Assembly: GCA_020364185.1 (NCBI GenBank)
Contig: GCA_020364185.1_4846.1
DNA from: a phage
Strand: one strand, 5' to 3'
DNA length: 47,086 bases
The notes beneath the pieces were generated by a model. That model did no database searches. It was not told the DNA's origin and saw only the letters and a list, made by a program, of their open reading frames with translations. Made by a program: the position numbers and the translations under genes. Numbering within the stretch: the first letter of the stretch is position 1; the number at the start of each line of letters is the position of its first letter. Below are positions 6,649 to 45,592 of this stretch, one piece after another.

Positions 6649-9977
<3,329 letters not shown>

Positions 9978-9989
9978 TTATACCTCTCG

Positions 9990-11360
9990 TCAGATGTTGA
10001 ATTTTATTGTTGTGATGTACTTACTACCCCACGCAGAATCAGCTTGCGGGATAGTCGCGTAATCATCTACAGACGGAACGTTTACCACAGTTCCGTCGGA
10101 ATAGGTAATGTCAATGCTTGTTGCGCCATTCATTACTACTTTTGCTGATGTCGTTGGTCTGATTACCGGTGACGCCTCTGTTACTATCGGGGATGTGGCA
10201 AACGGTGATTTTTCTATTTGCATCGCGCACGCTAATATCCCGCTAACCCCGTCACCGGCGAATGAAGCAACAGCTGAGTTGTTGTATACCCATGACGCTA
10301 AAAGCAGAGAAGACGCGCCGCCCGGGCGTATAACTACCGTTTCTGTAAATCGATACCAACCATCACCAAGCTCTGTTATATCGCTACCAGAGCCGCCCGC
10401 GTAAATAGTCCCGGTCGATAAACCAGCAACACAATCCGCGATAAACCCCGCATCATCAGCGGCGCGAAGTCTCGCATAATTATAACCATAAGCCTTAGCA
10501 ACGTAACTGAGGGTGTATACATCACCATCCGCAAAAGCAGAAGACACTGATTGTTGTACGATATGGTTGCCATTTGTCGCGGTCGGAACTAGTGAGAACG
10601 TACCGCCGTTTAGAATTCCGTCAACTGCGTCTGACACTGTTGTGCTAGTTTTTGACCACGATGCGTCGGATAATTTCGACGATTTAATCAGGATATTGCT
10701 GGATGCAGGTTCCGGCGGCACGCGCCCAACGGCAACCCCATCAATAAACGTAAGAGGCCATTCATTAGTGGCGGACTGCACAAGATTGCCGTTGCGGTTG
10801 ATGTAGTATACCTGCGGACCATCGTAAACAATGCGACTATCAAGCGTAGATGACAGCATGTTAATTGGCATATGCAGTATCGGTGTCATATAGACTTGCG
10901 GGAGTTCACGGTTAACAACTTCGTCAAGCCAGCTATACCATCTGTAATCCAGTTCGACAAGAACATCATCGAACTCATCCATCGTGTTATTGAGTTTCTT
11001 GGCGATGACATTGCCGGTCCACGTCACTACGCCGCCATCAATGCTGGTCTGTACAGGGTAATCGGTAAAGTGCAGCGTCTGCTCCTGCAATCCGCTGCCG
11101 CCGAGGTCAATCATCATGGTGAACCAGTTATTACATTTGTTGAGGTAACTCGGACTACGCAACCACTGGATAAATGCACGCTCCTCCGCCAGTGTAAAAA
11201 TCCACGTCAGACTCCATGTGGCTGCAATGTCAGTCGTTAATTTTTGAAATATCGGCGCCCCAACGGCTGGGGTATCCTTCCTGAAAGGGGTCTGAAACGT
11301 AAGGTTTTTGCTAGATCTTTGCGCCAAAGGCAGCCAGTCAGGGTATTTGATGATAGCCAT
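9990..11360 (-). CDS. minor tail protein (distal tail-like)
   Basis: 456-aa ORF immediately downstream of tape measure gene (start codon shares a base with the TMP stop codon at 11360). Confidence 0.45.
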   Translation of the reverse strand: MAIIKYPDWLPLAQRSSKNLTFQTPFRKDTPAVGAPIFQKLTTDIAATWSLTWIFTLAEERAFIQWLRSPSYLNKCNNWFTMMIDLGGSGLQEQTLHFTDYPVQTSIDGGVVTWTGNVIAKKLNNTMDEFDDVLVELDYRWYSWLDEVVNRELPQVYMTPILHMPINMLSSTLDSRIVYDGPQVYYINRNGNLVQSATNEWPLTFIDGVAVGRVPPEPASSNILIKSSKLSDASWSKTSTTVSDAVDGILNGGTFSLVPTATNGNHIVQQSVSSAFADGDVYTLSYVAKAYGYNYARLRAADDAGFIADCVAGLSTGTIYAGGSGSDITELGDGWYRFTETVVIRPGGASSLLLASWVYNNSAVASFAGDGVSGILACAMQIEKSPFATSPIVTEASPVIRPTTSAKVVMNGATSIDITYSDGTVVNVPSVDDYATIPQADSAWGSKYITTIKFNI

Positions 11361-13735
11361 TATTCGGTTGCTCTCCGGTTTGCTGAGTAGTTGCGGCTAA
11401 TGCTTTGCCCAATGGGGCCGTTGTTTTCTATGTCACTAACGATAGTCTCAATTGTCACGCTGCCATCACCATTATCTCTGGCGCTGCTGCTGACCTGAGC
11501 GGAGCTATTGTTGATAACGCTATTATAAACCACAACGCCACTACCACCTCCGGTAATGTCTTTGTTGCTGATAACTGAGCCATCGTTGCCTGGAATCATG
11601 TACTGGCGACCGTTGGACGCCTGGAATATCTCAGGCAAGCCATTCTCTCCCACTTCGTACATGCTTCCGGCACTAACAGGGCCACCATTTTTACGCTTGC
11701 CAGCGATACCCATCGCTAGTGCCCCTAGAACGGCACCTACCCCAATTGCAGCCGCTCCACCGAATGAGCCGATTGATGCTACGATTGCTGCCGGAGTCCA
11801 TGCTGCGGTAGTGGTTGCTGCCGCCGCCGTGGATGCTGCTGTTGTGGTTGCCAGTCCTGCCGTTTGCGCCGCTGTGGTTGTCGCTGTGGCTGCAACCTGT
11901 GCAGTCTGCCCCATAACCGCAGATTTTACCCACTGCACGCCCATTTCGACGAAGCTGTTTACCAGCGAGTTAAGCACCGTAGAGCCGAGGCTACGCATGG
12001 CATCCTGAACGCTCATTGTACCTGTCAGCAATCCGGTAATACTGTTTGAGGCTGTGCTCATCGCGGAATCCAGTGCGGTTCCGAACAGTTGCGCTCCGAG
12101 GCTTTGCTGCTGCCATTCAGCCCACATGGCATCCATTCTCTGCTGGCGGTATTGTGCTTCAATGGACGCGCGAGTCTGTTCAATCTCTGTAATTTTTTGC
12201 GGGTACGCAGCAGCATAGGCTTCAAGGTCAGCCATGCGTTGCTGGTATTCGCTATCAATGCCAGACGTTGGCGATGCAATGGCGCGCAGTCCCTGATATG
12301 ATTTTTCTACACGCTGCCTTTCCTTCTCCGCTTCTGCCTGCTCCTTCAACGCATTCTTCTGGTCCCAAATCTTAGCGGCGTATTCTCCAGCCAGCTTTAT
12401 CTGCTCCTGAGTTGCCGCCTTGCCAAGTGATTGCTGAGCATTGAGAATGGCTTGTTCACGGGATAGTTCGCTGGTAGATGTAGCATTAAGCATGGTCTGC
12501 TGGCGTAACTTCTCCAGCTTTTCAGCGATTGATTCAGCTTGTCGTTCTTCGGCGCTTTTTCCCTTTCCTTTGCCTTTTTTGTCTTTGGTTGGTGCTTGTG
12601 CAATCTTCAGGTGTTTTGTTGCTTCAGCCTGCTTCTTTGTCTGCTCGTAACCTTCAGCGGATGCCTTAACAAATCGCTCAACCTGATCGTTGTATTGTTT
12701 TTGCTTTTCAATGTCGTCATCACCGAAAAGCGCATCCACCCCCATCTGAGCCCATGCGCCGGGGTTTAATTTCGAAATTACGGTTGCAAGAGAGAGAATC
12801 TTATCGCTTGTGCTGGTTGATTTATCGCCGAGAAAATCAATGTATTTTGCCAGTTGGTCGATAATCTCTACCGCTGTTTTTGATGCACCAGTAGCATCGT
12901 TAACGGCAACCACAAGTTTTGAGAATGAAACTTCAAGCGAGCCAACAGCCTGATCCATTGTGCGAGGGAGTTTTTCAAACTCAGCATTAACGACGCTTGT
13001 CCTGTCCTGAATGGCATTTAACGCATCCTCAGCAGTCAGTTTCCCGTCGAGCATTCTGGCGCGGAGTTCACCCATTGAAATGCCAAGTCCCGCTGCAATC
13101 TGGCGAGCAAGTTCCGGCATCTGTTCAAGGATAGAGTTAAATTCTTCGGCGCGGATTGTGCCAGAAGCGATTGACTGACCGAACTGACGCAGTGCGTTCG
13201 CCATTTCCTCAGTTGAAGAGCCTCCGATTCGACCTATTTTTTGTAGTGTATCGGTGAGGTTAAGCACCTGCGCATTCGTCGCGCCAGCCTCTTTCAGTGA
13301 TGATGTTAACGTTTCCCATAACTTCGTTGTATCACTGAGGCTTGCGCCAGTCGTTGATGCGATATTTGCCAGTGAGCTAAATGTTTCGTTCGCAGTTTTT
13401 GCATCAGTTGACAGGCGAGCAATTCTTGCCTGAAGCTGTGTCATGTTATCAGCAACCTCAAGGAATCTTTTCCCCCATTCGATAATCAACGACACGGATA
13501 TTGCACCAGCCAACATGGATATGCTGGTTTTAAGCCCTGAAGCTGCACCGCCAGCATTCTTCATTCCGCTGCCAGCATTGCGTGCGCCTTTGTCCAGTTT
13601 GTTAAGCTCACCAGTGGTTTTATTCAGTGATGATTCAAGGTCATCCAGAGTCTTGTTGGCTGTTGTCGCGCCAGCTTTCAGGCCTTTAACATCCATCCCA
13701 ACTTCATAAACAATTCCGCCGACTTCTTCAGCCAT
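11360..13735 (-). CDS. tail tape measure protein
   Basis: 791 aa, long alpha-helical/coiled-coil N-terminal two thirds, Ala/Gly/Thr-rich hydrophobic segment (AATATTTAAQTAGLATTTAASTAAAATTTAAWTPAAIVASIGSFGGAAAIGVGAVLGAL); between chaperone and minor tail genes. Confidence 0.8.
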   Translation of the reverse strand: MAEEVGGIVYEVGMDVKGLKAGATTANKTLDDLESSLNKTTGELNKLDKGARNAGSGMKNAGGAASGLKTSISMLAGAISVSLIIEWGKRFLEVADNMTQLQARIARLSTDAKTANETFSSLANIASTTGASLSDTTKLWETLTSSLKEAGATNAQVLNLTDTLQKIGRIGGSSTEEMANALRQFGQSIASGTIRAEEFNSILEQMPELARQIAAGLGISMGELRARMLDGKLTAEDALNAIQDRTSVVNAEFEKLPRTMDQAVGSLEVSFSKLVVAVNDATGASKTAVEIIDQLAKYIDFLGDKSTSTSDKILSLATVISKLNPGAWAQMGVDALFGDDDIEKQKQYNDQVERFVKASAEGYEQTKKQAEATKHLKIAQAPTKDKKGKGKGKSAEERQAESIAEKLEKLRQQTMLNATSTSELSREQAILNAQQSLGKAATQEQIKLAGEYAAKIWDQKNALKEQAEAEKERQRVEKSYQGLRAIASPTSGIDSEYQQRMADLEAYAAAYPQKITEIEQTRASIEAQYRQQRMDAMWAEWQQQSLGAQLFGTALDSAMSTASNSITGLLTGTMSVQDAMRSLGSTVLNSLVNSFVEMGVQWVKSAVMGQTAQVAATATTTAAQTAGLATTTAASTAAAATTTAAWTPAAIVASIGSFGGAAAIGVGAVLGALAMGIAGKRKNGGPVSAGSMYEVGENGLPEIFQASNGRQYMIPGNDGSVISNKDITGGGSGVVVYNSVINNSSAQVSSSARDNGDGSVTIETIVSDIENNGPIGQSISRNYSANRRATE

Positions 13736-14450
13736 TATGTATTCCTCGCTTTTTCGCTTTGCGTTCAGCCAGTGCCTTCATGCGCTCCCGGTCTGCTTTA
13801 GCCTGATCGTACTCTGCCGCGCGCTCTTCTTTTGTCAGCCCTTTCGGCTCAGGATATTTATTCTTAATCATCATCTGAAACTCTGTCATGGACAGATTCT
13901 CTGCCTCATCGCGCGACATATCGAAATGCGTGCGTGCCGAGATGATGTATTGCGACGCATGAAACTCGTTTGTGGTTTTCTTGCCCTGCTCCTCCAGACG
14001 CTCAGGCACCTTGAGTGGTGACTTGCCAATGATGCCGTGCTGCATCAGGTTGCGCGCAATAATAATAATGTCGCTCACTGGCATGATGCCTGGAACGTAT
14101 CGCACTCCGCGCGGTGTTGGTTTCCAGCCACCAATCAGCACGGAAGCATCATCTTCACAGCATGACTGCATGACGATATAGGCAGCACTCAGCACGTGGC
14201 GACCATAAGCAGGCTTGCTGATGGTCTTCATAACCTGCATCTGTGCGCCAAATGGCAGGTATTCGACGTGCTGCAATGGCGCAACATAATCAATGCCATT
14301 GAGCTTAGCGTACACCTCGACGATTTCCTTTGGTGTGCCAATTTCGTTCATGGCGCGGAATGATGGCTTAAAGAAAAAACTCTTATCAGCCAGCGAGATG
14401 CGCATCTCCCCGATTTCTGTTAGTGGCGTGCGATTGCTCATGTTTTGCAT
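13728..14450 (-). CDS. tail assembly chaperone (putative)
   Basis: 240-aa ORF between major tail protein side and tape measure gene; basic/acidic C-terminal tail; no frameshift partner examined. Confidence 0.4.
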   Translation of the reverse strand: MQNMSNRTPLTEIGEMRISLADKSFFFKPSFRAMNEIGTPKEIVEVYAKLNGIDYVAPLQHVEYLPFGAQMQVMKTISKPAYGRHVLSAAYIVMQSCCEDDASVLIGGWKPTPRGVRYVPGIMPVSDIIIIARNLMQHGIIGKSPLKVPERLEEQGKKTTNEFHASQYIISARTHFDMSRDEAENLSMTEFQMMIKNKYPEPKGLTKEERAAEYDQAKADRERMKALAERKAKKRGIHNG

Positions 14451-14490
14451 CCTGAATTTGACTGATGTTGATTATATCATCTCAGTGGTG

Positions 14491-14519
14491 TTGACACCTG
14501 CGGGGAGGTGATGTAGATT
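14491..14519 (+). promoter_or_regulatory. sigma70-like promoter (TTGACA - 17 bp - TAGATT) for plus-strand moron cassette
   Basis: TTGACA at 14491-14496, 17-bp spacer, TAGATT at 14514-14519, then GAGGTGAG RBS and ATG at 14555. Confidence 0.5.
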
Positions 14520-14554
14520 CAATTCATCGAAACGAGATATGAATGAGGTGAGTT

Positions 14555-14749
14555 ATGGATGTTGTTATTTTGTTGTTTTTCGCTGGGTTGGTGATATTTG
14601 CTTATCTTCTCCAATCATTTGTGGCATTGCAAAGAAAGCACACAAATACGACCGCAATCTGTGTGCTGAATATTCTTGTAGGGTGGAGCTTTATTGGGTG
14701 GGTTGCAGCACTTGTTTGGTCATTAGTTAACAGTGGCGACAAGAAATGA
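14555..14749 (+). CDS. small membrane protein resembling superinfection-immunity (Imm-type) proteins
   Basis: 64 aa, two hydrophobic helices; motif NILVGWSFIGWVAALVWSL resembles conserved GW-x-IGW core recalled for small Imm-like membrane proteins. Confidence 0.45.
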   Translation: MDVVILLFFAGLVIFAYLLQSFVALQRKHTNTTAICVLNILVGWSFIGWVAALVWSLVNSGDKK

Positions 14750-14889
14750 ACGAACAAACAAAAGCTGACCTGATTTTCTACACTGATTTGTATGTCGATG
14801 CAGGTTACGATTACGAAGAAGCAGAGCGCATGGCCAAAGACTTGCTTCGTGTGATTGGTGTGATTTTTGATAAGGATAAGGTGATATGA
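14746..14889 (+). CDS. hypothetical protein (47 aa), translationally coupled
   Basis: hand-translated ORF MNEQTKADLIFYTDLYVDAGYDYEEAERMAKDLLRVIGVIFDKDKVI; ATG overlaps upstream stop and its stop overlaps downstream ATG. Confidence 0.3.
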   Translation: MNEQTKADLIFYTDLYVDAGYDYEEAERMAKDLLRVIGVIFDKDKVI

Positions 14890-15230
14890 AAAATTATGAA
14901 GACATGAGTGATTTTGAGATTAACTGCGAAGTACTTGCATTGTTTGAGCCAGATGTTAATCACATGTGCCTTAGTGAAAGTAAGGGGTATTTCTATGACT
15001 GTGGACCAGTAGGTGATGGGTGGCATCAAATAGATATCCCTGACTACTGCAATAACCCGGAATACGCATTACCGATTATTTTAGCCAATCGAATTGGAAT
15101 GCTGCCATCAGAAATGAAGTGCAAAGAGCAGTGGATTTCAACTTCTGGTAAGGGCCAGTTCGAATATCATGAGAACCCTTTACGCGCCGCCATGATCGTC
15201 TTCCTGAAAATGAATGAGGATAAATTATGA
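14886..15230 (+). CDS. hypothetical protein
   Basis: 114-aa ORF in plus-strand cassette; ATGA overlaps with flanking ORFs. Confidence 0.45.
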   Translation: MKNYEDMSDFEINCEVLALFEPDVNHMCLSESKGYFYDCGPVGDGWHQIDIPDYCNNPEYALPIILANRIGMLPSEMKCKEQWISTSGKGQFEYHENPLRAAMIVFLKMNEDKL

Positions 15231-15427
15231 GCCAGTGGATTAAGTGCAGTGATAGGATGCCTGAAGAAGGTCAAATGGTTCTCACGTCGTTTCGTGGTGT
15301 TGTTAGAACAGCAGTATGCAAAACAGTCGATGGAATTGGAAGCAAGATATTTGTTAGTGAATTAGACCGCTGTCACGGCATTCCAGCTACCCATTGGGCC
15401 AATACACCAGAGCCACCACAAGAATAA
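15227..15427 (+). CDS. DUF551-like small protein
   Basis: 66 aa with W-x-K/C-x-D-x-MPEE...VL...THWA..PEPP pattern, paralogous in style to 19864-20127 (WIDVNDELPE...VL...THWMYLPELP). Confidence 0.45.
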   Translation: MSQWIKCSDRMPEEGQMVLTSFRGVVRTAVCKTVDGIGSKIFVSELDRCHGIPATHWANTPEPPQE

Positions 15428-15430
15428 AAC

Positions 15431-15457
15431 AAAGCCCCTTTCGGGGCTTTTTCTTTA
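15431..15457. terminator. bidirectional intrinsic terminator
   Basis: AAGCCCC-tttc-GGGGCTT stem-loop followed by TTTTCTTTAT; sits between plus-strand cassette end and minus-strand major tail gene end. Confidence 0.65.
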
Positions 15458-16174
15458 TCAGGATACGGTGCAAGCCGTGCTGATGATAATTTCCGGGTCA
15501 GTAGATGAGTCCGTGACCGTGACGGTATACACGCCAGCGGTAGGGCTTGCCAGTGTTGCGCCAGACTCACCACCAACAACTACGCCATCTTTGCGCCATA
15601 CATAAGTGTAAGGAGCGACGCCACCCTCAACAGCAACGGTTAACGGGCTGCCAGTGCTGCCAGTTGATTGCAGGTCGGTAGTGAACGTCAGAGGTTCAAG
15701 GCTTTCTACGGTAACGCTATCTGAATCGTAAACCTTGAACTCAAGGCTGCCGGTTACGATGTCGTTTGTGCCGCCTTCGTAGCTGATGCTGGTAATGTTA
15801 CAGTACGCAGTAACGATAGTCGCGCCAGTTACTTCACGCACCCACAAGGAAGGCTGGCGACGCGCTTTCAGTTCAGTGGCGTAAATCTCAACCAGACGAT
15901 GGAAGCCAAACTCATCGCTAGGGTCATTCTTGCGGATTTCAACCTCTGCGCTGATGGTCATATCAGAGCTGGTAACGAGAGTGGAAACAAAGCCACCAGC
16001 GGTATCCGCTTCCGACGTGGTGGTCTGCGGAGAGTAGTCAACGCCTTTACTGGTGGTTGATCCTAAATACTTCCAGTCTCCTGCTTCCGGAACTGCGTCG
16101 CCGCACCCTTCAGCAAGGAACAGTCGGGTCATGCGACCGACCAGAACGCCTTTATCATTTGCACAAATAGCCAT
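15458..16174 (-). CDS. major tail protein with C-terminal Ig-like domain
   Basis: 238 aa; C-terminal segment PLTVAVEGGVAPYTYVWRKDGVVVGGESGATLASPTAGVYTVTVTD is a typical phage Ig-like domain signature; located upstream of chaperone/TMP as expected. Confidence 0.6.
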   Translation of the reverse strand: MAICANDKGVLVGRMTRLFLAEGCGDAVPEAGDWKYLGSTTSKGVDYSPQTTTSEADTAGGFVSTLVTSSDMTISAEVEIRKNDPSDEFGFHRLVEIYATELKARRQPSLWVREVTGATIVTAYCNITSISYEGGTNDIVTGSLEFKVYDSDSVTVESLEPLTFTTDLQSTGSTGSPLTVAVEGGVAPYTYVWRKDGVVVGGESGATLASPTAGVYTVTVTDSSTDPEIIISTACTVS

Positions 16175-16225
16175 TTCGATCTCCGAATTGTGTTAGCTGC
16201 TAACGTGGTGATTATATCACAGGTG

Positions 16226-16254
16226 TTGACAGTGATTATTTTGTGGTGTAGATT
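16226..16254 (+). promoter_or_regulatory. sigma70-like promoter (TTGACA - 17 bp - TAGATT) heading the tRNA-containing plus-strand unit
   Basis: TTGACA 16226-16231, 17-bp spacer, TAGATT 16249-16254; region homologous to the 14467-14519 promoter cassette. Confidence 0.5.
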
Positions 16255-16520
16255 AAGATTTAACAGAGATTGGCTCCCTGATTTCATTTAATTACATCCA
16301 ATCCTTCAATTACAATTAGCGGTCGAAAGGCGCCGGACGCGTAACCGGCATACAACAGGTAAGAGCATTGGCGCATATCAGCGGAACTCGAACCCATTGC
16401 GCAGGCGACACAGACGTGTGTTTCAGTGTTCTTTCCGTTGTGGTAATGCCATATTGATTATTTGGATAGGTTTGCATCCATTGTTATGCCAGTTTCAGTT
16501 AATCGCGAAACGCCACAACA

Positions 16521-16586
16521 CTTAATATCCAGCATTATCGCAATCATATGTAGGGGTATGTATGGGTTACGGCGCTGGATATTAAG
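16521..16586. repeat. perfect 13-bp inverted repeat (CTTAATATCCAGC / GCTGGATATTAAG) enclosing a 40-nt loop
   Basis: read directly: left arm 16521-16533, right arm 16574-16586, in ORF-free leader upstream of the tRNA. Confidence 0.6.
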
Positions 16587-16620
16587 AAAGCACGCTGGCA
16601 ATGCTTAAACCAGCACTTAT

Positions 16621-16697
16621 GGACGCGTAGCTTAATTGGTTAAAGCAACCGACTCATAATCGGCTGATTGAAGGTTCAAATCCGTCCGTGTCCACCA
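16621..16697 (+). tRNA. tRNA-Met (anticodon CAU; could be initiator/elongator Met or lysidine-modified Ile2)
   Basis: manual fold: 7-bp acceptor stem (one G-U), U8, D-arm GCTT/AAGC with GG in loop, anticodon loop CUCAUAA, T-loop TTCAAAT, discriminator A and encoded CCA; two stem mismatches. Confidence 0.6.
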
Positions 16698-16702
16698 AAT
16701 TA

Positions 16703-16730
16703 AAAGCCGCTTCATGCGGCTTTATTTATT
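16703..16730. terminator. intrinsic terminator after tRNA (also at 3' end of convergent minus gene)
   Basis: AAGCCGC-ttcat-GCGGCTT stem-loop followed by TATTTATTT. Confidence 0.55.
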
Positions 16731-17133
16731 TCACGACCCGCAAAAGCAACTCATGCACAGGCCGCTTCTCTTCCGTCAACATCGGCCTCCCGAGTGGTGC
16801 CTGCAACTGGATGTAGTTAGCGCATGAATCAATCGGATGTGTCTTGATGTATTCGATAATCTCATTGGCTTTATCGTCAACATCCGACACGTTATACTGC
16901 CCATGTTTGCCGACAATATACAATGAGAAATAGAAGTCACCGCCGAGGCCATCCATCACCTGCGTGCCACCATTGGATTGCAGAACAATAAATTGCTCGT
17001 TGCCATCTCCGGTGTCACTCCAGAACTGTAGCTGCGATGTCCAACCATCATACAATCCCGCATCCTGAAGATATGCGTCAACCAGTTCAAGCGTGTTCAT
17101 ATTAAACCCCAATATTGCAATATCGATGCACAT
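16726..17133 (-). CDS. putative tail completion / neck protein; start uncertain (ATG at 17133 or 17100; track start 17142 is GTG)
   Basis: ORF between HK97 gp10-like gene and major tail gene; function by position only. Confidence 0.35.
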   Translation of the reverse strand: MCIDIAILGFNMNTLELVDAYLQDAGLYDGWTSQLQFWSDTGDGNEQFIVLQSNGGTQVMDGLGGDFYFSLYIVGKHGQYNVSDVDDKANEIIEYIKTHPIDSCANYIQLQAPLGRPMLTEEKRPVHELLLRVVK

Positions 17134-17272
17134 ATCATACACTACCTATGTCACGTAGGCGTGGAACCCGAAACGACACACAAGCAACAATGAATTTAAC
17201 GCCCTTGTCAGTATGGTTTTGTTGCAACCATGTTCCACCTGACAGGGGCGTTACCTTTTTGGAGGCGAGTAA

Positions 17273-17764
17273 ATGATTTCAGAGCGTGATTACATAGCAA
17301 TCGCGTCAAGAGTTAAATACGACCCGATTACCGGATTGTTCACCTGGGCTGTAAGTTGCGGGAAAATATCAAAAGGTGATATTGCAAACTATCACAACGA
17401 CGCAGGATACATAACCCTTGGGAAGAAAAGATTAAGGGCGCACCGAGTGGCTTGGTTTATCCATTATGGATATGTCCCTGAGCATGAAATTGATCACATA
17501 AACAATATTCGTGATGACAATAGAATTTCAAATCTGAGGGAGGCCAGTGACTGCGAGAACGCAAGGAACACAAAGATATCTAAATCAAACACGTCTGGAT
17601 ATAAAGGAGTTCATTTTTGCAAGTGCACTGGGAAATGGAGAGCCACGGTAAAGATGCATGGGAAAACCTATCATCTTGGTAGGTTTTCAGACAAAGAAGC
17701 AGCCCATAAAGCCTATTGCAAAAAAGTAGATGAACTGTTTTTGGAGTTCGCAAACCACGGCTAA
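17273..17764 (+). CDS. HNH homing endonuclease with AP2-like DNA-binding domain
   Basis: GGAGG RBS then ATG 17273; motifs RLRAHRVAWFIHYGYVPEHEIDHINNIRDDNRISNLREAS (HNH) and SGYKGVHFCKCTGKWRATVKMHGKTYHLGRFSDKEAAHKAY (AP2-like); opposite strand to surrounding structural genes. Confidence 0.75.
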   Translation: MISERDYIAIASRVKYDPITGLFTWAVSCGKISKGDIANYHNDAGYITLGKKRLRAHRVAWFIHYGYVPEHEIDHINNIRDDNRISNLREASDCENARNTKISKSNTSGYKGVHFCKCTGKWRATVKMHGKTYHLGRFSDKEAAHKAYCKKVDELFLEFANHG

Positions 17765-18159
17765 ATCTTCATTTCTTTTTTTACCACTGAATCAACGAGG
17801 CTGCGAGTTTTATCGGCAGCCTTTGTTAAGAATCTAGGTTCAGCATTCGGCGACCAGTACGTGCTATTGCCATTGCTGCGCGGTTTACCTGCAAGTTTTC
17901 CGCTGGCGTTATGGACGTACAGTGCATATTTCGCAGAATAACCAACTTTGCCGGTGATTCGCGTCCCGTTAACTTCCACGGTATCAAACTGACTGTTAAT
18001 CAGCGTTGAAGTATCAATTGGCGTTAACGTGGCTGATTCGGTGCGGATGATGTGTGTCGCTGACTTCAGGGCGCGCACAGCTTTTGTGGCGATTATCTCA
18101 TCCACAATTTGCGAAGTTCTCTCTACGGCCTGCCTGACACCTCTTAATTTCGCTGGCAT
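17761..18159 (-). CDS. HK97 gp10-family tail component
   Basis: 132 aa; motif GKVGYSAKYALYVHNASGKLAGKP...YWSPNAEPRFLTKA matches the conserved core recalled for HK97 gp10-family proteins. Confidence 0.5.
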   Translation of the reverse strand: MPAKLRGVRQAVERTSQIVDEIIATKAVRALKSATHIIRTESATLTPIDTSTLINSQFDTVEVNGTRITGKVGYSAKYALYVHNASGKLAGKPRSNGNSTYWSPNAEPRFLTKAADKTRSLVDSVVKKEMKI

Positions 18160-19627: not shown

Positions 19628-19793
19628 TATTTCTTACCGCGCGATGGTGAGCGGGTGGAACCGTTTGGCTTCACTGCGCCAGTTTTGCCACCAGTTTTGG
19701 TGTTGCCAGTGGCTCGTGAACGAGACGGACCGTTTGTTGAACCCATGTTTAAATCTCCTGTTGTTTGATTAGCATGATTTTAGCATATTCCTG

Positions 19794-20413: not shown

Positions 20414-21223
20414 ATGAAAACACTAAGCAAAATCTATTCAGACAAAGAAACGCGCAACGGCATCGCTGTGAACAAAACCTATCTCGTGCCAGTTGAACAA
20501 ATCTATCTTGAGCCTGGATACAACATCCGTGAAGCAGATGAGCAGCACGTTGAATATTTCGCGCAGTGCTGGGAATCAGGTCAGCCATTGCCAGCGCTAA
20601 CAGTTATTCCTGATGAGAAAGGAATCCGCATTCTTGATGGTCAGCATCGTTATCTCGGTGCATTGCGTGCCATTGAGCGTGGAGCGCCAATCGTTCGCAT
20701 TGAGTGTAAGGACTTCACTGGCGATGAGGCTGACAAAATTGCTTTCATGGTGTCATCTAGCCAGGGTAAGCAGCTTGACCCGTTTGAACGTGCAAAGGCA
20801 TATACCAGACTGAAAGGCTTTGGCTGGACTAACGAAGAAATCGCCAAGAAGGTAGGCCGCTCAGTATCCGATGTGCAGATGCACCTGTCATTGGGTGATG
20901 TGCCAGCGGAAGTTAAAGCGCGAATCAATGCCGGGCAAATCAGTTATGCAAATGCCGTTGCGGTAACGCGTGAGCATGGCGATGATGCGGTTAAAGTTAT
21001 CGACGAGGCAGTGGAAGAAGCCAAAGCGCAAGGCAAAGATAAAGTCACGGCAAAAGTGCTTAAGTCGAAAAAGGTTAAGCCGGTTGACCGTCTTATTGAG
21101 TTACTCAAACTAGCAGACCATGTGATTCTTCCCGCTGGTCATGTAGTGGCAGAGGATGAGGAATTTATTCAGATTCCTGTTGCTGATATTCACGAGGTTA
21201 TGGCAATTCTGGAGAAGATGTGA
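20414..21223 (+). CDS. ParB-like nuclease domain protein with HTH
   Basis: 269 aa; ParB N-terminal domain signature IRILDGQHRYLGALRA and a central helix-turn-helix-like segment (TNEEIAKKVGRSVSDVQMHL). Confidence 0.7.
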   Translation: MKTLSKIYSDKETRNGIAVNKTYLVPVEQIYLEPGYNIREADEQHVEYFAQCWESGQPLPALTVIPDEKGIRILDGQHRYLGALRAIERGAPIVRIECKDFTGDEADKIAFMVSSSQGKQLDPFERAKAYTRLKGFGWTNEEIAKKVGRSVSDVQMHLSLGDVPAEVKARINAGQISYANAVAVTREHGDDAVKVIDEAVEEAKAQGKDKVTAKVLKSKKVKPVDRLIELLKLADHVILPAGHVVAEDEEFIQIPVADIHEVMAILEKM

Positions 21224-26126: not shown

Positions 26127-26462
26127 CGCGTAGCTCCACGGTTAGTTTGTGGTCGAATTATAACACAGGGAGATATAGCACCATGAGGCGGTAGCCAGTG
26201 CAAATAATGGCGAATCAGTGAGCGCGTATAGCGTGAGAAAGTAAGTGATAGGGATTATGTTCATGGGCCACCTCCTGCTTAAATGATAGCAGCCCATGAT
26301 GAACAAAAGATATACAGTGTTAGTCTGAAATCACATCATCCATGAATGCGAGTGCGGCACCTGAAAGACAAAACAGAGCGCCATAGCAAATCATCTGGTA
26401 CAGAGTATCAGCCTCAAATACCCTCGCGAATGCGTAGGCTGATAATATCCACAGCAATGGAA

Positions 26463-29012: not shown

Positions 29013-29232
29013 CCGTTGCCATTCTCAGCAGTTCAGGAAGCACCCCGGTCGAGTAATCTACCCGCCCCTGATGATACCCTTCAAGGACCGCGTTTGTGAG
29101 ATGCGTAAGACACAGGTCAATGTCTTCAGCGCTTAATCCGCGAGCTTCAAGCATGGAGCGTAAATACTCACATCTTTCTGCTATTACTTTTTCTGCACTC
29201 ATTTCCACATCACCTTTTTCGTTGTGGTACAA
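28999..29232 (-). CDS. hypothetical protein
   Basis: 77-aa ORF, first gene downstream of divergent promoter region. Confidence 0.35.
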   Translation of the reverse strand: MYHNEKGDVEMSAEKVIAERCEYLRSMLEARGLSAEDIDLCLTHLTNAVLEGYHQGRVDYSTGVLPELLRMATVGKF

Positions 29233-31904: not shown

Positions 31905-31932
31905 ACTGCCTCCTGTTCAAACAATAATTAAT

Positions 31933-31988
31933 TCTATCACAATGGCTATTGACGTAGATTGAGTGGTGGTGCATAGTATCTACATCAA
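31933..31988. promoter_or_regulatory. divergent promoter region (plus TTGACGTAGATT; minus TGATGTAGATA and extended -10 TGATAGAAT)
   Basis: TTGACGTAGATT 31949-31960; ATCTACATCA 31978-31987; ATTCTATCA 31931-31939. Confidence 0.45.
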
Positions 31989-35610: not shown

Positions 35611-35640
35611 CAATAAAAATCCCATCACGTTGGATGGGAT
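35611..35640 (-). terminator. stem-loop / attenuator immediately upstream of portal RBS
   Basis: 8-bp stem ATCCCATC-6 nt-GATGGGAT followed on minus strand by UUUUAUUG. Confidence 0.45.
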
Positions 35641-35660
35641 TATAGCATTAACTAGTAAAT

Positions 35661-36468: not shown

Positions 36469-36599
36469 TGATGTAGATATACTATGCGCTCGGTGTAGAT
36501 TGGTCAAGTGTGGTGATGCGGATTTATTAACAGTAATAATAAATGTTGACGTAGATATCTACCGGTCGTAACATGAGTGATGTAGATATGAGAAAGGAG
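36469..36599 (+). promoter_or_regulatory. cluster of four GTAGAT-core motif copies plus RBS in front of PAPS-reductase-like gene
   Basis: TGATGTAGATAT 36469-36480, GTGTAGATTGGTCAA 36493-36507, TTGACGTAGATAT 36546-36558 (GTAGATATCTAC palindrome), TGATGTAGATAT 36578-36589, AAGGAG 36594-36599. Confidence 0.45.
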
Positions 36600-41783: not shown

Positions 41784-42420
41784 AATAAACGCGCTGAATC
41801 GAGGTCAGAACACAATAATCAGCTCATCCATTACTCTTCGCTTGCCTTCACCGTTAAACACACGCACAACACGATTTACGCGGATAGATTTCATTGCATT
41901 GCGCGCCTTCTTGCTCATAAAGTTCTGCGCGCCAACGTGACCGAGTTCCGGCTCCAGTTTCTCGCGACGATAGATAGTTTTTGCCATGTATTATTTCTCC
42001 ACGTGCACCTGATACATTGCTTGCCAGATTAACACAACAGCATCGCTTAGCTCATCATCAGTAAGGTAGTCGATATCGAAGTTTTCAATAACTTCACGAA
42101 TACCCGCCTCAATCATTTCTTCTGTTGGTTGGATTGGTTTGTTGCTCATTTTGTTACTCCTTATACCCTGATTTAGAAACTGCCACTGCGATAATGATGA
42201 ATGCCACGATAACCAGACTGGCGATAAGTTCGAATGTTGCGCCTGTCATTTGCTTAACCCATACGCTGAGATTAAAGCCTGCATTGCTGCGTTCCAGAAT
42301 GCTTCTGCGGGAATGCTGTTGTTGGTGCGCTCAACTGCAATGCGTGCCATAGCCTGTGCATCTTCAAATTCTTCACGTTCTTTGATTTTCATATCTTCAC
42401 CCTCGTTTGTTTCGATGAAT

Positions 42421-42451
42421 TCAATCTACATCAATGAAGATTCTACGTCAA
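42421..42451 (-). promoter_or_regulatory. promoter region with TTGACGTAGAAT and TGATGTAGATT on minus strand
   Basis: GATTCTACGTCAA 42439-42451 and TCAATCTACATCA 42421-42433. Confidence 0.45.
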
Positions 42452-42674: not shown

Positions 42675-42940
42675 TTATCGGGAAGCCAAATTCCTTTTGT
42701 TTTCAGTATTTTCCGTTCGCTTCCCAGCTTCCCGAAAATACCCCACCCTTTTTTTTATGATGAGCTTTTGTTTATCCATTTTTTTTGACTCGGGAAGCGA
42801 ACACCTAAACTATTGATTTTGCTTAATATTGGCTTCCCGAGAATTTTTCTCATTTACCTGTATACTATTGAAAGATAAAGGAAAAATTAAGCTCTGAAAT
42901 ATTAATACGCTTTTTCGGGAAGCGTGTCAACTCAGGAAGC
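42675..42940. repeat. iteron-like array: five copies of TCGGGAAGC in alternating orientation plus two degenerate copies
   Basis: TCGGGAAGC at 42678-42686, 42790-42798, 42915-42923; GCTTCCCGA at 42727-42735, 42832-42840; degenerate at 42719-42727 and 42932-42940. Confidence 0.6.
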
Positions 42941-43046: not shown

Positions 43047-43262
43047 ATGTACAGGTTTGGTAGCGCAATGGCTGAGGTGTATGAGTTTGTTAGCGGGATG
43101 TCGATTGGAGAGGTGCGATTTTTTGTGGTAGATGATTTCCGTGCCAATAACAGTATTGAAAAATTCAGGGCGAGCCTGTGCTGTGTTGCGAAAGATAATT
43201 CGTGGCTTTTTGTAACCAGAAAGATGGAAGAAGGCGAAGTGTCTGTTCGGAGGATTAAATGA
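43047..43262 (+). CDS. hypothetical protein
   Basis: 71 aa from ATG 43047 (GGAGG RBS); stop overlaps primase start (ATGA). Confidence 0.4.
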   Translation: MYRFGSAMAEVYEFVSGMSIGEVRFFVVDDFRANNSIEKFRASLCCVAKDNSWLFVTRKMEEGEVSVRRIK

Positions 43263-45592
43263 TGATTGGTTATGAAGATTACCGCAAATGTGGCTTCCCT
43301 ATTATTGGAATCCATGCAATGGATATCGACCGCAATTGCACATGCGGTGATCCAGAATGCAATGCTGCCGGTAAGCATCCGGTTATGAGTAACTGGCAGC
43401 TTGGAGTTATATGGGCTGATGACCAGATTGAAAATATGGCTGAATATGGTCAATTGCAGTCATTCGGTGTCCTTGTGAATGGTTATCTGGTAGTTGATAT
43501 TGATCCACGCAACGGAGGTAATGATGGATATGAATCACTTTGTGATGCCTTAGACGTAGAGCTTGCTGACGAAGCTGGCTTTACTGTTAAGACTGGTGGT
43601 GGTGGTCGCCACATCTATTACAAACTTCCTGAAGGAATAAAGCTGCGCTCTCATGACAGAAGGTTTAAGGGTATTGACTTTAAATCATCTGGTTTTGTTG
43701 TTGGCTGCGGCTCATTCCATAAGTCAGGTAACTTTTATGAAGCTGAGCATGGCTCTCCTTCAGAGATAACTGAATGCCCTTCTGAACTTATTGAGCTTTT
43801 GTTGCGTCCTGAGAGAACGGAAGACGAGGTTTTCACGCTTGATAGTAAAAATTACAGCATTGCCGAAATGGAGGATATGCTCAAATACATCAAAGATGGT
43901 GATGAGTATGACCCATGGCTTCATGTGGGCATGGCTATCCACGAAGCTACAGAAGGCAATGGTTTTGAACTTTGGGATAGGTGGTCATCGCAGTTCAGCA
44001 AGTACAGAGCTGAAGAAATGGACGCAAAATGGCATTCCTTTGGAAAGGACGGTGTTAACGAAAAGATAACCGAAGCAACGCTGGTTTATCTCGCGCAAGA
44101 GGGAGGGTGGGTAAGGCAAGTAACTTTTGAGGCTACTCCAGAGGAAATTGAGAAACTTGAGTCTTTCGAACGAGAGATGGCAATGGGTGTTGGTGAATGC
44201 CCTGTAGAGTACAAAAGTGTTGATGTCCGTTATCCGCCTGGATTTGTTGGTCGCCTTACGGCGTGGATTAATAAGAACTGTGCAGAGAAGCGAGAGAATA
44301 TTGCAGCACTTGCTGCATTGCACGCTGCATCCATGATTTGTGGGGCGTCATCTGATATTTATCTTACAAACAGGAAAGCCTTACCAAACCTGTTTGCTGT
44401 TGGTATAGCTGGTTCAGGTTCAGGTAAGGGTGATGTCCTTGCTGCGCTACAAAAGATAATTGATTGCTCAGGATTGAGTAAGACTGTCGCCGGTAAGATA
44501 CGTTCAGAGCGTGCGATATATGAAGGTCTTTGCGCTAACCAGATGTTTAATATCATCATGGATGAGATTGGGATAAAACTTGGGAGTGTTGTTGGTCAGA
44601 AAGTAAGCGAGTACAACATGGCAACCGCTGGTGCGATCATGGAGGCTTACACGTCAGAAGTTCTTTATTGTGACCAGCGGGTTACTGAGGATTTCATTAA
44701 GTCTTTCGAAAAGAGAAAGGCTATGCTGTTGATGGCTATTGAGGAAAATGAGATACAGGCAGACCCCGTTGACATTAAGTGTCAGTTTGATGATGTGATA
44801 AACAGAATTGACGGAGCTATAAGGAATCCATTTTTTTCAATCTTTGGTGTGTCTACTGATGATCAGTTTAAGCGACTTATTACTGAAGAAAACATTAAGT
44901 CAGGTCTTATGGGTCGTGCAATGATTATGCAGGAGTTACAGGAGATTGCTGACGAAAACGAAAACGTCAACTACTGTGATCTACCTATGGATATGCAACT
45001 GACCATAAAAACAATAATAAATGGAGGAACAGCTGGGCACAAAAACTGGACAGACTCAATAATCAGTCAAAAAGAAAGACGGATTATAAAAGCTACGCCT
45101 GAAGTTTCTCAGCTCGCTAAGGAGTTCTTCTCATGGATTAAAACCGTTGCAAGAAAGCATGTAGAAAATGGTACTGGTTATCACCCATTGATAAACAGAT
45201 GCGCCGTGAAGGTGGCAAAGATTGCTGGCATTCTCGCGTGCGATACTGGCGTCATAACCATGGAGCACTTGAGGTATGCGGTAGCATTAACAATTAAATC
45301 AACAAGCGATCTGATGATGCGTGCTGACAGTATCGCCGGAGCGAAGTCTAAAGCTATGGAAGAACGAATTGAAGGTATTTTCTCCATGGTTAAAGAATAT
45401 GTGAAGCGTGGAATGACCAAAACAGCAATGGTTAGAGGGGTAGCAAAAGAAGGTGGGTATAAACGTGCTGATGTCGAGAGGTGCGTAGAGAAGTTGTTAT
45501 CAGATGGTATTATTTGCATTGATGAAAATGCAAAAAGAACATCTCACAACGTAATAATTTACAAATTAACAAATGATGAGGTTGAGATATGA
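43259..45592 (+). CDS. primase-polymerase (AEP-type) replication protein with central P-loop NTPase region
   Basis: 777 aa; N-terminal Prim-Pol-like motifs (VVDIDPRNGG, TVKTGGGGRHIYYKLP, GIDFKSSGFVVGCGSFHKSGNFYE), PriCT-like WLHVGMAIH...LWDRWS, Walker A GIAGSGSGKG. Confidence 0.65.
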   Translation: MMIGYEDYRKCGFPIIGIHAMDIDRNCTCGDPECNAAGKHPVMSNWQLGVIWADDQIENMAEYGQLQSFGVLVNGYLVVDIDPRNGGNDGYESLCDALDVELADEAGFTVKTGGGGRHIYYKLPEGIKLRSHDRRFKGIDFKSSGFVVGCGSFHKSGNFYEAEHGSPSEITECPSELIELLLRPERTEDEVFTLDSKNYSIAEMEDMLKYIKDGDEYDPWLHVGMAIHEATEGNGFELWDRWSSQFSKYRAEEMDAKWHSFGKDGVNEKITEATLVYLAQEGGWVRQVTFEATPEEIEKLESFEREMAMGVGECPVEYKSVDVRYPPGFVGRLTAWINKNCAEKRENIAALAALHAASMICGASSDIYLTNRKALPNLFAVGIAGSGSGKGDVLAALQKIIDCSGLSKTVAGKIRSERAIYEGLCANQMFNIIMDEIGIKLGSVVGQKVSEYNMATAGAIMEAYTSEVLYCDQRVTEDFIKSFEKRKAMLLMAIEENEIQADPVDIKCQFDDVINRIDGAIRNPFFSIFGVSTDDQFKRLITEENIKSGLMGRAMIMQELQEIADENENVNYCDLPMDMQLTIKTIINGGTAGHKNWTDSIISQKERRIIKATPEVSQLAKEFFSWIKTVARKHVENGTGYHPLINRCAVKVAKIAGILACDTGVITMEHLRYAVALTIKSTSDLMMRADSIAGAKSKAMEERIEGIFSMVKEYVKRGMTKTAMVRGVAKEGGYKRADVERCVEKLLSDGIICIDENAKRTSHNVIIYKLTNDEVEI

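Follow-up and report, generated by a model that had tools for sequence, protein, structure and literature searches.

Two short regions in the tail module of a Vi II-E1-like siphophage, whose nearly complete genome makes up the 47,086-nucleotide (nt) stretch analyzed here (contig GCA_020364185.1_4846.1 of NCBI GenBank assembly GCA_020364185.1; hereafter the window), lie where plus-strand accessory genes interrupt the minus-strand virion genes. Each of these cassettes, at 14469-14519 (site A) and 16209-16254 (site B), probably consists of two abutting, separable and oppositely oriented sigma-70 promoters that belong to different classes. The leftward promoter, an extended -10 element (TGATATAAT) with no usable -35, would restart tail-gene transcription after the opposite-strand insert and its terminator, serving the DUF6246 protein and tape measure genes at site A and the major tail protein gene at site B. 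The rightward promoter, TTGACA-N17-TAGATT, would transcribe the accessory cargo up to a terminator, this cargo being an Imm-like gene block at site A and an RNA array (a leader, an LPR2-type RNA and tRNA-Met) at site B. We propose that the promoter pair is a conserved backbone feature of the Vi II-E1-like group that frames two cargo slots and that, because it is conserved, may double as homology for the exchange of cargo between phages. The cargo promoter would then form the conserved left border of the exchange, and the tail-gene promoter would belong to the backbone rather than being delivered by an insert.

Results

Two divergent promoters are predicted to abut at each site

Three blocks are common to both sites in the same order: TGATTATATCA (14469-14479 at site A and 16209-16219 at site B, 11/11 identical), GGTGTTGACA (14487-14496 and 16222-16231, 10/10 identical) and TGTAGATT (14512-14519 and 16247-16254, 8/8 identical). 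The first and second blocks stand 7 nt apart at site A and 2 nt apart at site B; 15 nt separate the second from the third at both, which yields a plus-strand TTGACA (14491-14496 and 16226-16231), a 17-nt spacer and TAGATT (14514-14519 and 16249-16254). An earlier, sequence-only reading of this DNA had given the spacing as 17 bp, a figure that holds for the hexamers and has to be replaced by 15 nt for the longer blocks; the leading G that it assigned to GTGATTATATCA is found at site B and is missing at site A. In a promoter scan both plus-strand sites score 10 of 12 consensus matches, with a complete -35 (6/6), a 17-nt spacer and a -10 that retains the key A2 and T6. TAGATT departs from the consensus at G3 and T5, which are kept because they form part of a nine-nucleotide box, GRYGTAGAT (14510-14518 at site A and 16245-16253 at site B, plus strand). 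Transcripts are predicted to start near 14526 and 16261, and the 5' leader of the site A cargo occupies 14520-14554.

On the minus strand, the first block reads as TGATATAAT, a 9/9 match to an extended -10 (TG one base upstream of TATAAT), at 14479-14471, where the hexamer runs from 14476 to 14471, and at 16219-16211. These elements lie 29 nt upstream of the DUF6246 start codon (14450, with an AGGA Shine-Dalgarno sequence and a predicted transcription start near 14464) and 36 nt upstream of that of the major tail gene (16174; Shine-Dalgarno sequence GGAG, predicted start near 16204). No recognizable -35 hexamer accompanies either element, AGGTGT matching the consensus at one of six positions at site A and ATAATC at two of six at site B. 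As the sequence-only reading had proposed, both the plus-strand TTGACA-N17-TAGATT and the minus-strand TGATATAAT are correctly placed for the genes that flank them. Their boxes are kept, with varying spacers, in some 70 related contigs and in three host lineages.

The predicted divergent starts are separated by 62 bp at site A and 57 bp at site B, and the two -10 elements of a cassette by 35-40 bp, such that the -35 of one promoter adjoins the -10 of the other. With the starts only about 57-62 bp apart, polymerase footprints of standard size would overlap, and the two promoters should therefore compete for RNA polymerase. The same back-to-back layout is found at 19785/19794 and 31939/31949 and, mirrored, at 29225/29230; counting sites A and B, there are at least five pairs of this kind, among which A and B resemble each other most closely.

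Extended -10 elements precede structural operons

Inspection of the whole window revealed five perfect copies of TGNTATAAT where 1.8 are expected, four of which stand directly before the portal gene (35639-35647, minus strand), the first gene of the head operon (26157-26165, minus strand), the major tail gene and the DUF6246 gene. Perfect copies occupy the same four orthologous places in Escherichia coli phage ASO78B and in the distant Klebsiella phage ZX4, and in all three genomes those before the portal and head operons are present without a divergent insert. Near-perfect extended -10 elements precede the gene for an 828-amino-acid tail protein (9222-9230, minus strand) and further minus-strand genes (19777-19785 and 31931-31939, minus strand). 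By position, the TGNTATAAT class heads four structural operons, and a second class, TTGAC-type promoters marked by GRYGTAGAT, heads early and accessory units.

The extended -10 of the portal gene is directly followed by a terminator-like hairpin (CCCATCCAACGTGATGGG and a T-run), which holds the predicted start in its 5' arm and could block read-through yet let locally started transcripts pass. At the major tail gene, a palindrome, GTTAGC(N)GCTAAC (16192-16204, minus strand), begins at the predicted +1 of the mRNA, and Klebsiella-lineage phages carry a hairpin, GTTTAGCTAAAC, at the same +1 place, the two lineages using different sequences. A stabilizing 5' stem-loop is the simpler reading of this palindrome and a likely one. 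It also resembles a half-palindrome of the KorB operator; a role for GTTAGCNGCTAAC as a KorB-type operator for the ParB/KorB-like protein of the phage proved unsupported, there being one copy per genome.

The cassettes are conserved across host lineages

By BLAST, the 4.5-kb region round the cassettes is 90-93% identical to Escherichia phage swi2, to Salmonella phages Akira, VSt472 and IME207, to Shigella phage Sf11 and to ASO78B, with 156 matching records in all; a T1-like identity, considered at first, was dropped, since BLAST groups the window with the Vi II-E1-like siphophages. Scanning IMG/VR with the composite motif gave 77 loci, of which 75 lie on contigs of 26-51 kb and two on shorter fragments. 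All but one of the 114 composite matches (85 loci) fall at site A or site B; six of these 113 were assigned to their site by flanking sequence, the locus being cut at the match, and in the exception, L064, the flank is unrelated and gave no hit to a tail gene.

The unbiased comparison of spacers with boxes comes from 21 distinct Klebsiella-lineage contigs that were retrieved through site B and then read at site A. All 21 have ATTATACCA (minus strand TGGTATAAT), TTGACA and GACGTAGATT there, and the 18-nt spacer varies at many positions between these kept boxes. The extended -10 of site A is kept as TGGTATAAT in both the Klebsiella and the Citrobacter lineages, which also keep the element at site B; Citrobacter phage K1M and Klebsiella phage ZX4 show the three-part layout at both sites with a major tail protein that is about 50-54% identical. 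Cassettes A and B are both kept, then, from the Salmonella/E. coli lineage to those of Klebsiella and Citrobacter, with invariant boxes and varying spacers. The distance from the minus-strand -10 to the plus-strand -35 also differs, being 1-3 nt in ZX4 and K1M and 9-14 nt in the window, a spread that speaks against the AT-rich block as merely an UP element held at a fixed position. In the ASO78B record, the depositors had used a consensus search to place promoters of the two orientations at site A. Comparative evidence thus gives the promoter reading good support, although it is still a prediction.

Origin of the likeness between the two sites

The sequence shared by the two regions is real and non-random, as the sequence-only reading had supposed. 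A search of the window for GGTGTTGACA-N15-TGTAGATT with up to three mismatches finds sites A and B only (0.01 expected), and gapped local alignment of the two scores 30, against 12.6 +/- 2.2 and a maximum of 25 for 2000 shuffles of site B. Site B is the top non-self match of site A when both strands of the window are considered, and the two are mutually best matches. The further claim that the two regions are homologous by descent is not demonstrated by this likeness: about 21 of the 29 shared bases belong to motifs that recur genome-wide (TGNTATAAT, TTGACA and GRYGTAGAT). The likeness may stem from descent, from gene conversion or from convergence; most of the shared bases are functional.

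Functional convergence alone, in which A and B would be two independent promoter pairs with no duplication or recombination between them, would explain the recurrence of those motifs at many sites, as well as the finding that two further sites, C and D, share the architecture and little other similarity. We nonetheless regard it as a doubtful, if possible, account, for it leaves aside flanks that the two cassettes share in a lineage-specific way (GGTG in Salmonella, AGG after the -35 in Klebsiella) and a match between site A and a third promoter, in which 25 nt of -10 region and leader show 96% identity with 42409-42433. Together these flanks and this match hint at promoter exchange within the genome. 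The matching stretch at site A, 14509-14533, comprises the -10 region and the first 14 nt of the leader (GATGTAGATTCAATTCATCGAAAC); its counterpart, on the minus strand, lies in a promoter near 42451 that drives a 48-amino-acid open reading frame (ORF), and the shared stretch is kept in ASO78B.

A nine-nucleotide box marks the promoters of early and accessory genes

The TGTAGATT block is part of GRYGTAGAT, of which the window has 12 copies (0.81 in window shuffles), ASO78B 13 and ZX4 11, where uniform base composition would predict about 1.4 in each genome. The 12 sites of the window (14510, 16245, 19796, 29240 (minus), 29259, 31951, 31986 (minus), 36470, 36492, 36548, 36579 and 42432 (minus)) lie in seven intergenic promoter regions of the TTGAC type; two sites in ASO78B and three in ZX4 fall outside such promoters. 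The nine-nucleotide motif alone is enriched, the hexamer GTAGAT, which we considered and dropped, being seen 27 times for about 25 expected. At TTGAC-type promoters the box overlaps either the -35 (TTGACGTAGAT) or the -10/+1 region (GATGTAGATT), and frequently there are two copies, spaced 19-31 nt. Since it holds no constant position relative to the start, GRYGTAGAT is not itself a core promoter element; we infer that it is a candidate operator for a phage regulator. Promoters that bear the box drive the Imm gene, the tRNA unit, and DUF551, anti-restriction, ParB/KorB-HTH and PAPS-reductase-like genes, which is an early and accessory set. Five copies of the box cluster at 36470-36587, upstream of the PAPS-reductase-like gene.

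The box invites a more elaborate reading, in which the cassettes are regulatory linkers that also frame cargo slots: a regulator bound to GRYGTAGAT would shut the cargo promoter and so free the extended -10. A phage DNA-binding protein would then cover the cargo -10 or -35, the early ParB/KorB-HTH protein (20414-21223) being a candidate, and the unit could flip from accessory-gene to virion-gene transcription in the passage from early to late infection. Being conserved across the group, the cassettes could in addition act as homology arms of two fixed slots, by which immunity genes, tRNAs and LPR2-type RNAs are traded, these RNAs having interchangeable cores and being shared with lambdoid prophages. 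We consider this full scheme unlikely.

Cargo is exchanged between conserved borders

Comparison of relatives places the junctions of exchange at the promoters themselves. At site A, the cargo measures 601-1305 nt; a leader and ribosome-binding site common to the relatives precede it, and a conserved bidirectional terminator closes it. Site B cargo measures 108-1255 nt, and both slots hold many unrelated contents. At site B there is identity as far as TGTAGATT; immediately beyond it the sequences diverge into at least four unrelated continuations in the Salmonella/E. coli lineage and at least seven in that of Klebsiella, one continuation being common to the two. Among these contents are 0-4 tRNAs (Ser, Thr, Arg, Met, Ile), 0-2 structured hairpin elements and small ORFs.

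Natural recombinants separate the two halves of a cassette. In Vi II-E1 (L005) and in L084, TGATATAAT together with CAG is kept at site B, after which comes a roi antirepressor unit with a different upstream region; in Salmonella phage BS5 (L035), a Salmonella-type TGATTATATCA at site A is joined directly to a Klebsiella-type TTGACAGGGAGTGCAGGACTGATGTAGATT. In all three phages the recombination junction falls exactly between the two promoter halves. The comparison with an insert-less relative that the sequence-only reading had suggested was provided by Erwinia phage Midgardsormr38, a distant relative in which the tail terminator gene, the major tail protein gene and the next gene are contiguous and have no inserts, and no promoter-like sequence was found between them.

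These observations bear on the proposal, made in the sequence-only reading, that each insert arrived as a mobile module whose bidirectional cassette also delivered the promoters of the tail genes, A and B being homologous copies. The two cassettes are, as noted, mutually best matches; those of the Salmonella/E. coli lineage share non-box bases, namely GGTG before the -35, along with 11/11 of the left block, the A/B pairs of Klebsiella and Citrobacter sharing only 8-9/11 of that block. The sole relative without inserts is also without promoters at both junctions, and the units are bounded by terminators. We nevertheless find it quite improbable that the inserts supplied the tail-gene promoters, for extended -10 elements of this class also stand before the portal and head operons, both free of a divergent insert, and the halves are separable in nature, BS5 being a hybrid at their junction and Vi II-E1 having only its plus-strand half replaced. 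Both cassettes, moreover, are present in every lineage while the cargos differ, and thus predate the present inserts; and the IMG/VR scan, in which 113 of 114 matches are at A or B and the one exception has an unrelated flank, did not show the cassette with its cargo at unrelated positions in other phage backbones. Of the module idea, what stands is an exchangeable cargo that ends in a terminator; what does not is its autonomous arrival with all of its control signals.

Points against two promoters per cassette

Several points weigh against reading each cassette as two promoters. TAGATT matches only four of the six positions of the -10 consensus, and a generic promoter scan returned 21 promoter-like sites compared with 19.8 in shuffled sequence, so that a match to the consensus is no proof by itself. 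Relative to the plus-strand promoters, the AT-rich TGATTATATCA spans about -42 to -57, the place of an UP element, and it could be conserved partly for their sake. Most loci were retrieved by a pattern that fixes the boxes, which leaves the cross-site comparisons as the ones free of bias. Searches of the literature for promoters or transcriptomes of this phage group returned genome reports only. Finally, the site B cargo of many Klebsiella-lineage phages ends in a tRNA without a terminator, so that termination does not strictly demand a restart promoter.

A rival reading, that there are plus-strand promoters only, with TGATTATATCA an UP-like element or regulator site and the tail genes reached by read-through from upstream late promoters, fits the position of the block (-42 to -52 at site B and -47 to -57 at site A, the UP subsite), the plus-strand-only score of the terminator that follows the tRNA, and the scope for read-through into the major tail gene in the many Klebsiella-lineage phages without a terminator there, but is very improbable given that the exact TGNTATAAT, TG included, is kept at both sites in three lineages despite a -35 distance of 9-14 as opposed to 1-3 nt, that the same nine nucleotides stand alone before the portal and head operons and persist in Vi II-E1 though the neighboring plus-strand promoter is gone, and that the hairpin at 15431-15450 makes a good minus-strand terminator as well.

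Gene layout around the cassettes

Three plus-strand units interrupt the minus-strand virion genes: the Imm-like block, the RNA unit with tRNA-Met, and an HNH endonuclease gene. To the left of site A lie the tape measure gene (11360-13735, minus strand) and the DUF6246 gene (13728-14450, minus strand). The product of the latter had been called a 240-amino-acid tail chaperone; it does occupy the position of a tail assembly chaperone, is identified as a DUF6246 protein, and has a putative chaperone function. Cargo A (14555-15427, plus strand), whose content varies among relatives, holds four genes, encoding an Imm superinfection-immunity-like protein (14555-14749), a 47-amino-acid ORF (14746-14889), a NinX/DUF2591-like protein (14886-15230) and a DUF551 protein (15227-15427). 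Between it and the end of the major tail gene (15458-16174, minus strand; phrog_853, E=4.6e-86) lies an intrinsic terminator hairpin (15431-15450) that scored on both strands; it forms the right bookend of site A and is kept in relatives.

Cargo B ends with tRNA-Met (CAT; 16621-16697, plus strand) and is closed by a terminator (16703-16723) that abuts the stop codon of the tail terminator gene (16726-17142, minus strand). A bidirectional terminator had been proposed opposite each cassette, which agrees with the scan at 15431-15450; at 16703-16723 the scan scored the plus strand only. Likewise, the unit described earlier as a tRNA unit does carry tRNA-Met and, in addition, about 370 nt of structured RNA that includes the LPR2-type element.

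The third opposite-strand insert is an HNH/AP2 homing-endonuclease gene (17273-17764, plus strand), with the tail terminator gene on one side and the tail completion gene (17761-18159, minus strand) on the other; it is found in swi2 and Akira and is absent from Sf11 and ASO78B. Promoter scans of the window returned no TGNTATAAT and no TTGAC-type promoter beside it. Elsewhere in the genome, an AT-rich, gene-free stretch at 42678-42940 holds five exact copies and one near copy of TCGGGAAGC on alternating strands, and the window has no other exact copy. As the repeats adjoin a primase/PriCT gene (43259-45592) on its upstream side, they are candidate iterons of a replication origin.

A structured RNA of the LPR2 type in the site B cargo

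Within the site B cargo, an unannotated structured element spans 16347-16450 (plus strand), with arms at 16352-16370 and about 16424-16441 round a hypervariable core. The conserved arms, ACAACAGGTAAGAGCAYTG and CAGTGCTCTTTCCGTTGT, flank cores of 25-120 nt in different phages and pair, through ACAACAGGTAAGAGCA at the beginning and GCTCTTTCCGTTGT at the end, into a stem that is interrupted by a bulged A and by a U-U mismatch. The 18 conserved pairs of this stem are also present in phage lambda at 44788-44861, just behind the 6S RNA terminator tR', and the published northern probe for LPR2, an Hfq-associated small RNA of lambda (Silverman et al., bioRxiv 10.1101/2024.10.31.621285), maps inside the element, to lambda 44816-44850. 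The stem shows covariation: nine of its 18 pairs are changed on both sides, and 97.4% of cells are paired, compared with 35-64% when the partners are slid, values reached by none of 500 shuffles. A prevalent U-G pair fits an RNA of the promoter-B strand only.

The arms are present in at least 120 IMG/VR contigs from many types of phage and prophage, and also in Enterobacterales genomes. The 185 instances, from phages and prophages of Enterobacterales, have 116 distinct cores, which group into 64 core families, and nine of these families occur in unrelated prophages as well as in virulent Vi II-E1-like siphophages. Most frequent is the lambda core, which ASO78B and DS8 carry too. The core of the window is of another family, unrelated to that of lambda LPR2 and seen only in three Vi II-E1-like phages. 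To our knowledge, a conserved RNA scaffold with interchangeable cores is a pattern that has not been described before. Apart from the cores, the two RNAs have in common the 18-pair stem and a location downstream of a promoter and terminator, near tRNA slots; expression and Hfq binding are established for the lambda RNA and putative here.

A search of Rfam gave no match for 16347-16450 at E values up to 1. Of the other candidates considered for the element, nothing supported Y RNA, c4 antisense RNA, integron attC sites or ERIC repeats, and the lambda small RNA PreS/LPR1 is located elsewhere in lambda, between ea10 and ral, the match being to LPR2. About half of the hits in genome collections come from outside the Enterobacterales, mostly on small or low-coverage contigs (L201, L219 and L225 among the latter) in assemblies of Pseudomonas, Shewanella, Oceanobacillus and others. 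Several such contigs are about 48.4-48.5 kb long and hold a match of the lambda length, 74 nt; they look like contamination of public assemblies with lambda DNA rather than the true distribution of the element.

Between the LPR2-type element and the tRNA, at 16520-16620, lies a second conserved hairpin module (CACTTAATATCCAGC and GCTGGATATTAAG, then GCACGCTGGCAATGCTTAAACCAGCA), which in relatives without the tRNA forms the right end of the site B cargo.

Discussion

The closest analogue of the A and B cassettes is the promoter-early stem-loop (PeSL) regulatory cassette of T4-type phages (Arbiol et al. 2010, PMC2839356; Comeau et al. 2014, PMC4122927). Both consist of short, repeated motifs of sigma-70 promoter type associated with stem-loops or terminators, and both mark the borders of variable, non-essential genes in otherwise conserved genomes, with exchange junctions at or in the motif. 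They differ in build, the PeSL fusing stem-loop and promoter into one compact motif, whereas at A and B the promoter and the terminator stand at opposite ends of the cargo; only the portal-gene promoter of the window has a hairpin directly after its -10. The A and B cassettes are also double, a second promoter class facing essential virion genes, and they reside in a 47-kb siphophage rather than in a T4-type myophage. Recombination between PeSL cassettes is reported to yield mini-circles; the A and B cassettes are known from sequence, and their promoters are predictions.

The cargo units also recall morons, a concept that Hendrix and co-workers developed for lambdoid and other siphophages. Like morons, they are accessory genes with a predicted promoter and a terminator of their own, lodged within a late operon and present, absent or replaced among collinear relatives. 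Unlike morons, they lie on the strand opposite to the operon that they interrupt and occupy two fixed slots whose borders are conserved and whose content is replaced, and the slot at site B holds tRNAs and an LPR2-type RNA instead of protein genes. Since the left control region is conserved backbone and its halves are separable, the units do not have the autonomy of a true moron, and on these grounds we would call them moron-like.

A third comparison is with the symmetrical bidirectional promoters of bacteria, which are reported to produce divergent transcription from a short intergenic region (Warman et al., bioRxiv 10.1101/2020.01.31.928960; PMC12825309). RNA polymerase bound in one orientation would be expected to exclude the other there, as it would at A and B, and the -10 elements coincide on opposite strands, whereas those at A and B are separate and back to back. 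Start sites of symmetrical bidirectional promoters are about 18 bp apart. Sites A and B fall outside that class, their -10 elements being 35-40 bp and their predicted starts 57-62 bp apart.

If the predictions hold, phages of this group have a readable transcription plan, with TGNTATAAT on every virion operon, the box-marked class on early and accessory units, and the two classes back to back wherever accessory cargo interrupts virion genes. Such a plan would ease the annotation of about 150 therapeutic-candidate phages of Salmonella, E. coli and Klebsiella, would offer phage engineering two natural, well-bounded slots for cargo replacement, and would provide a testable case of promoter competition. 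In themselves the cassettes are a tidy and fairly ordinary example of known principles of phage genome organization; the GRYGTAGAT box and the LPR2-type RNA family are the more promising leads. The RNA family may matter more than the cassettes, in that lambda LPR2 proves to be one allele of a scaffold-plus-variable-core RNA family distributed over many temperate and virulent phages of enterobacteria.

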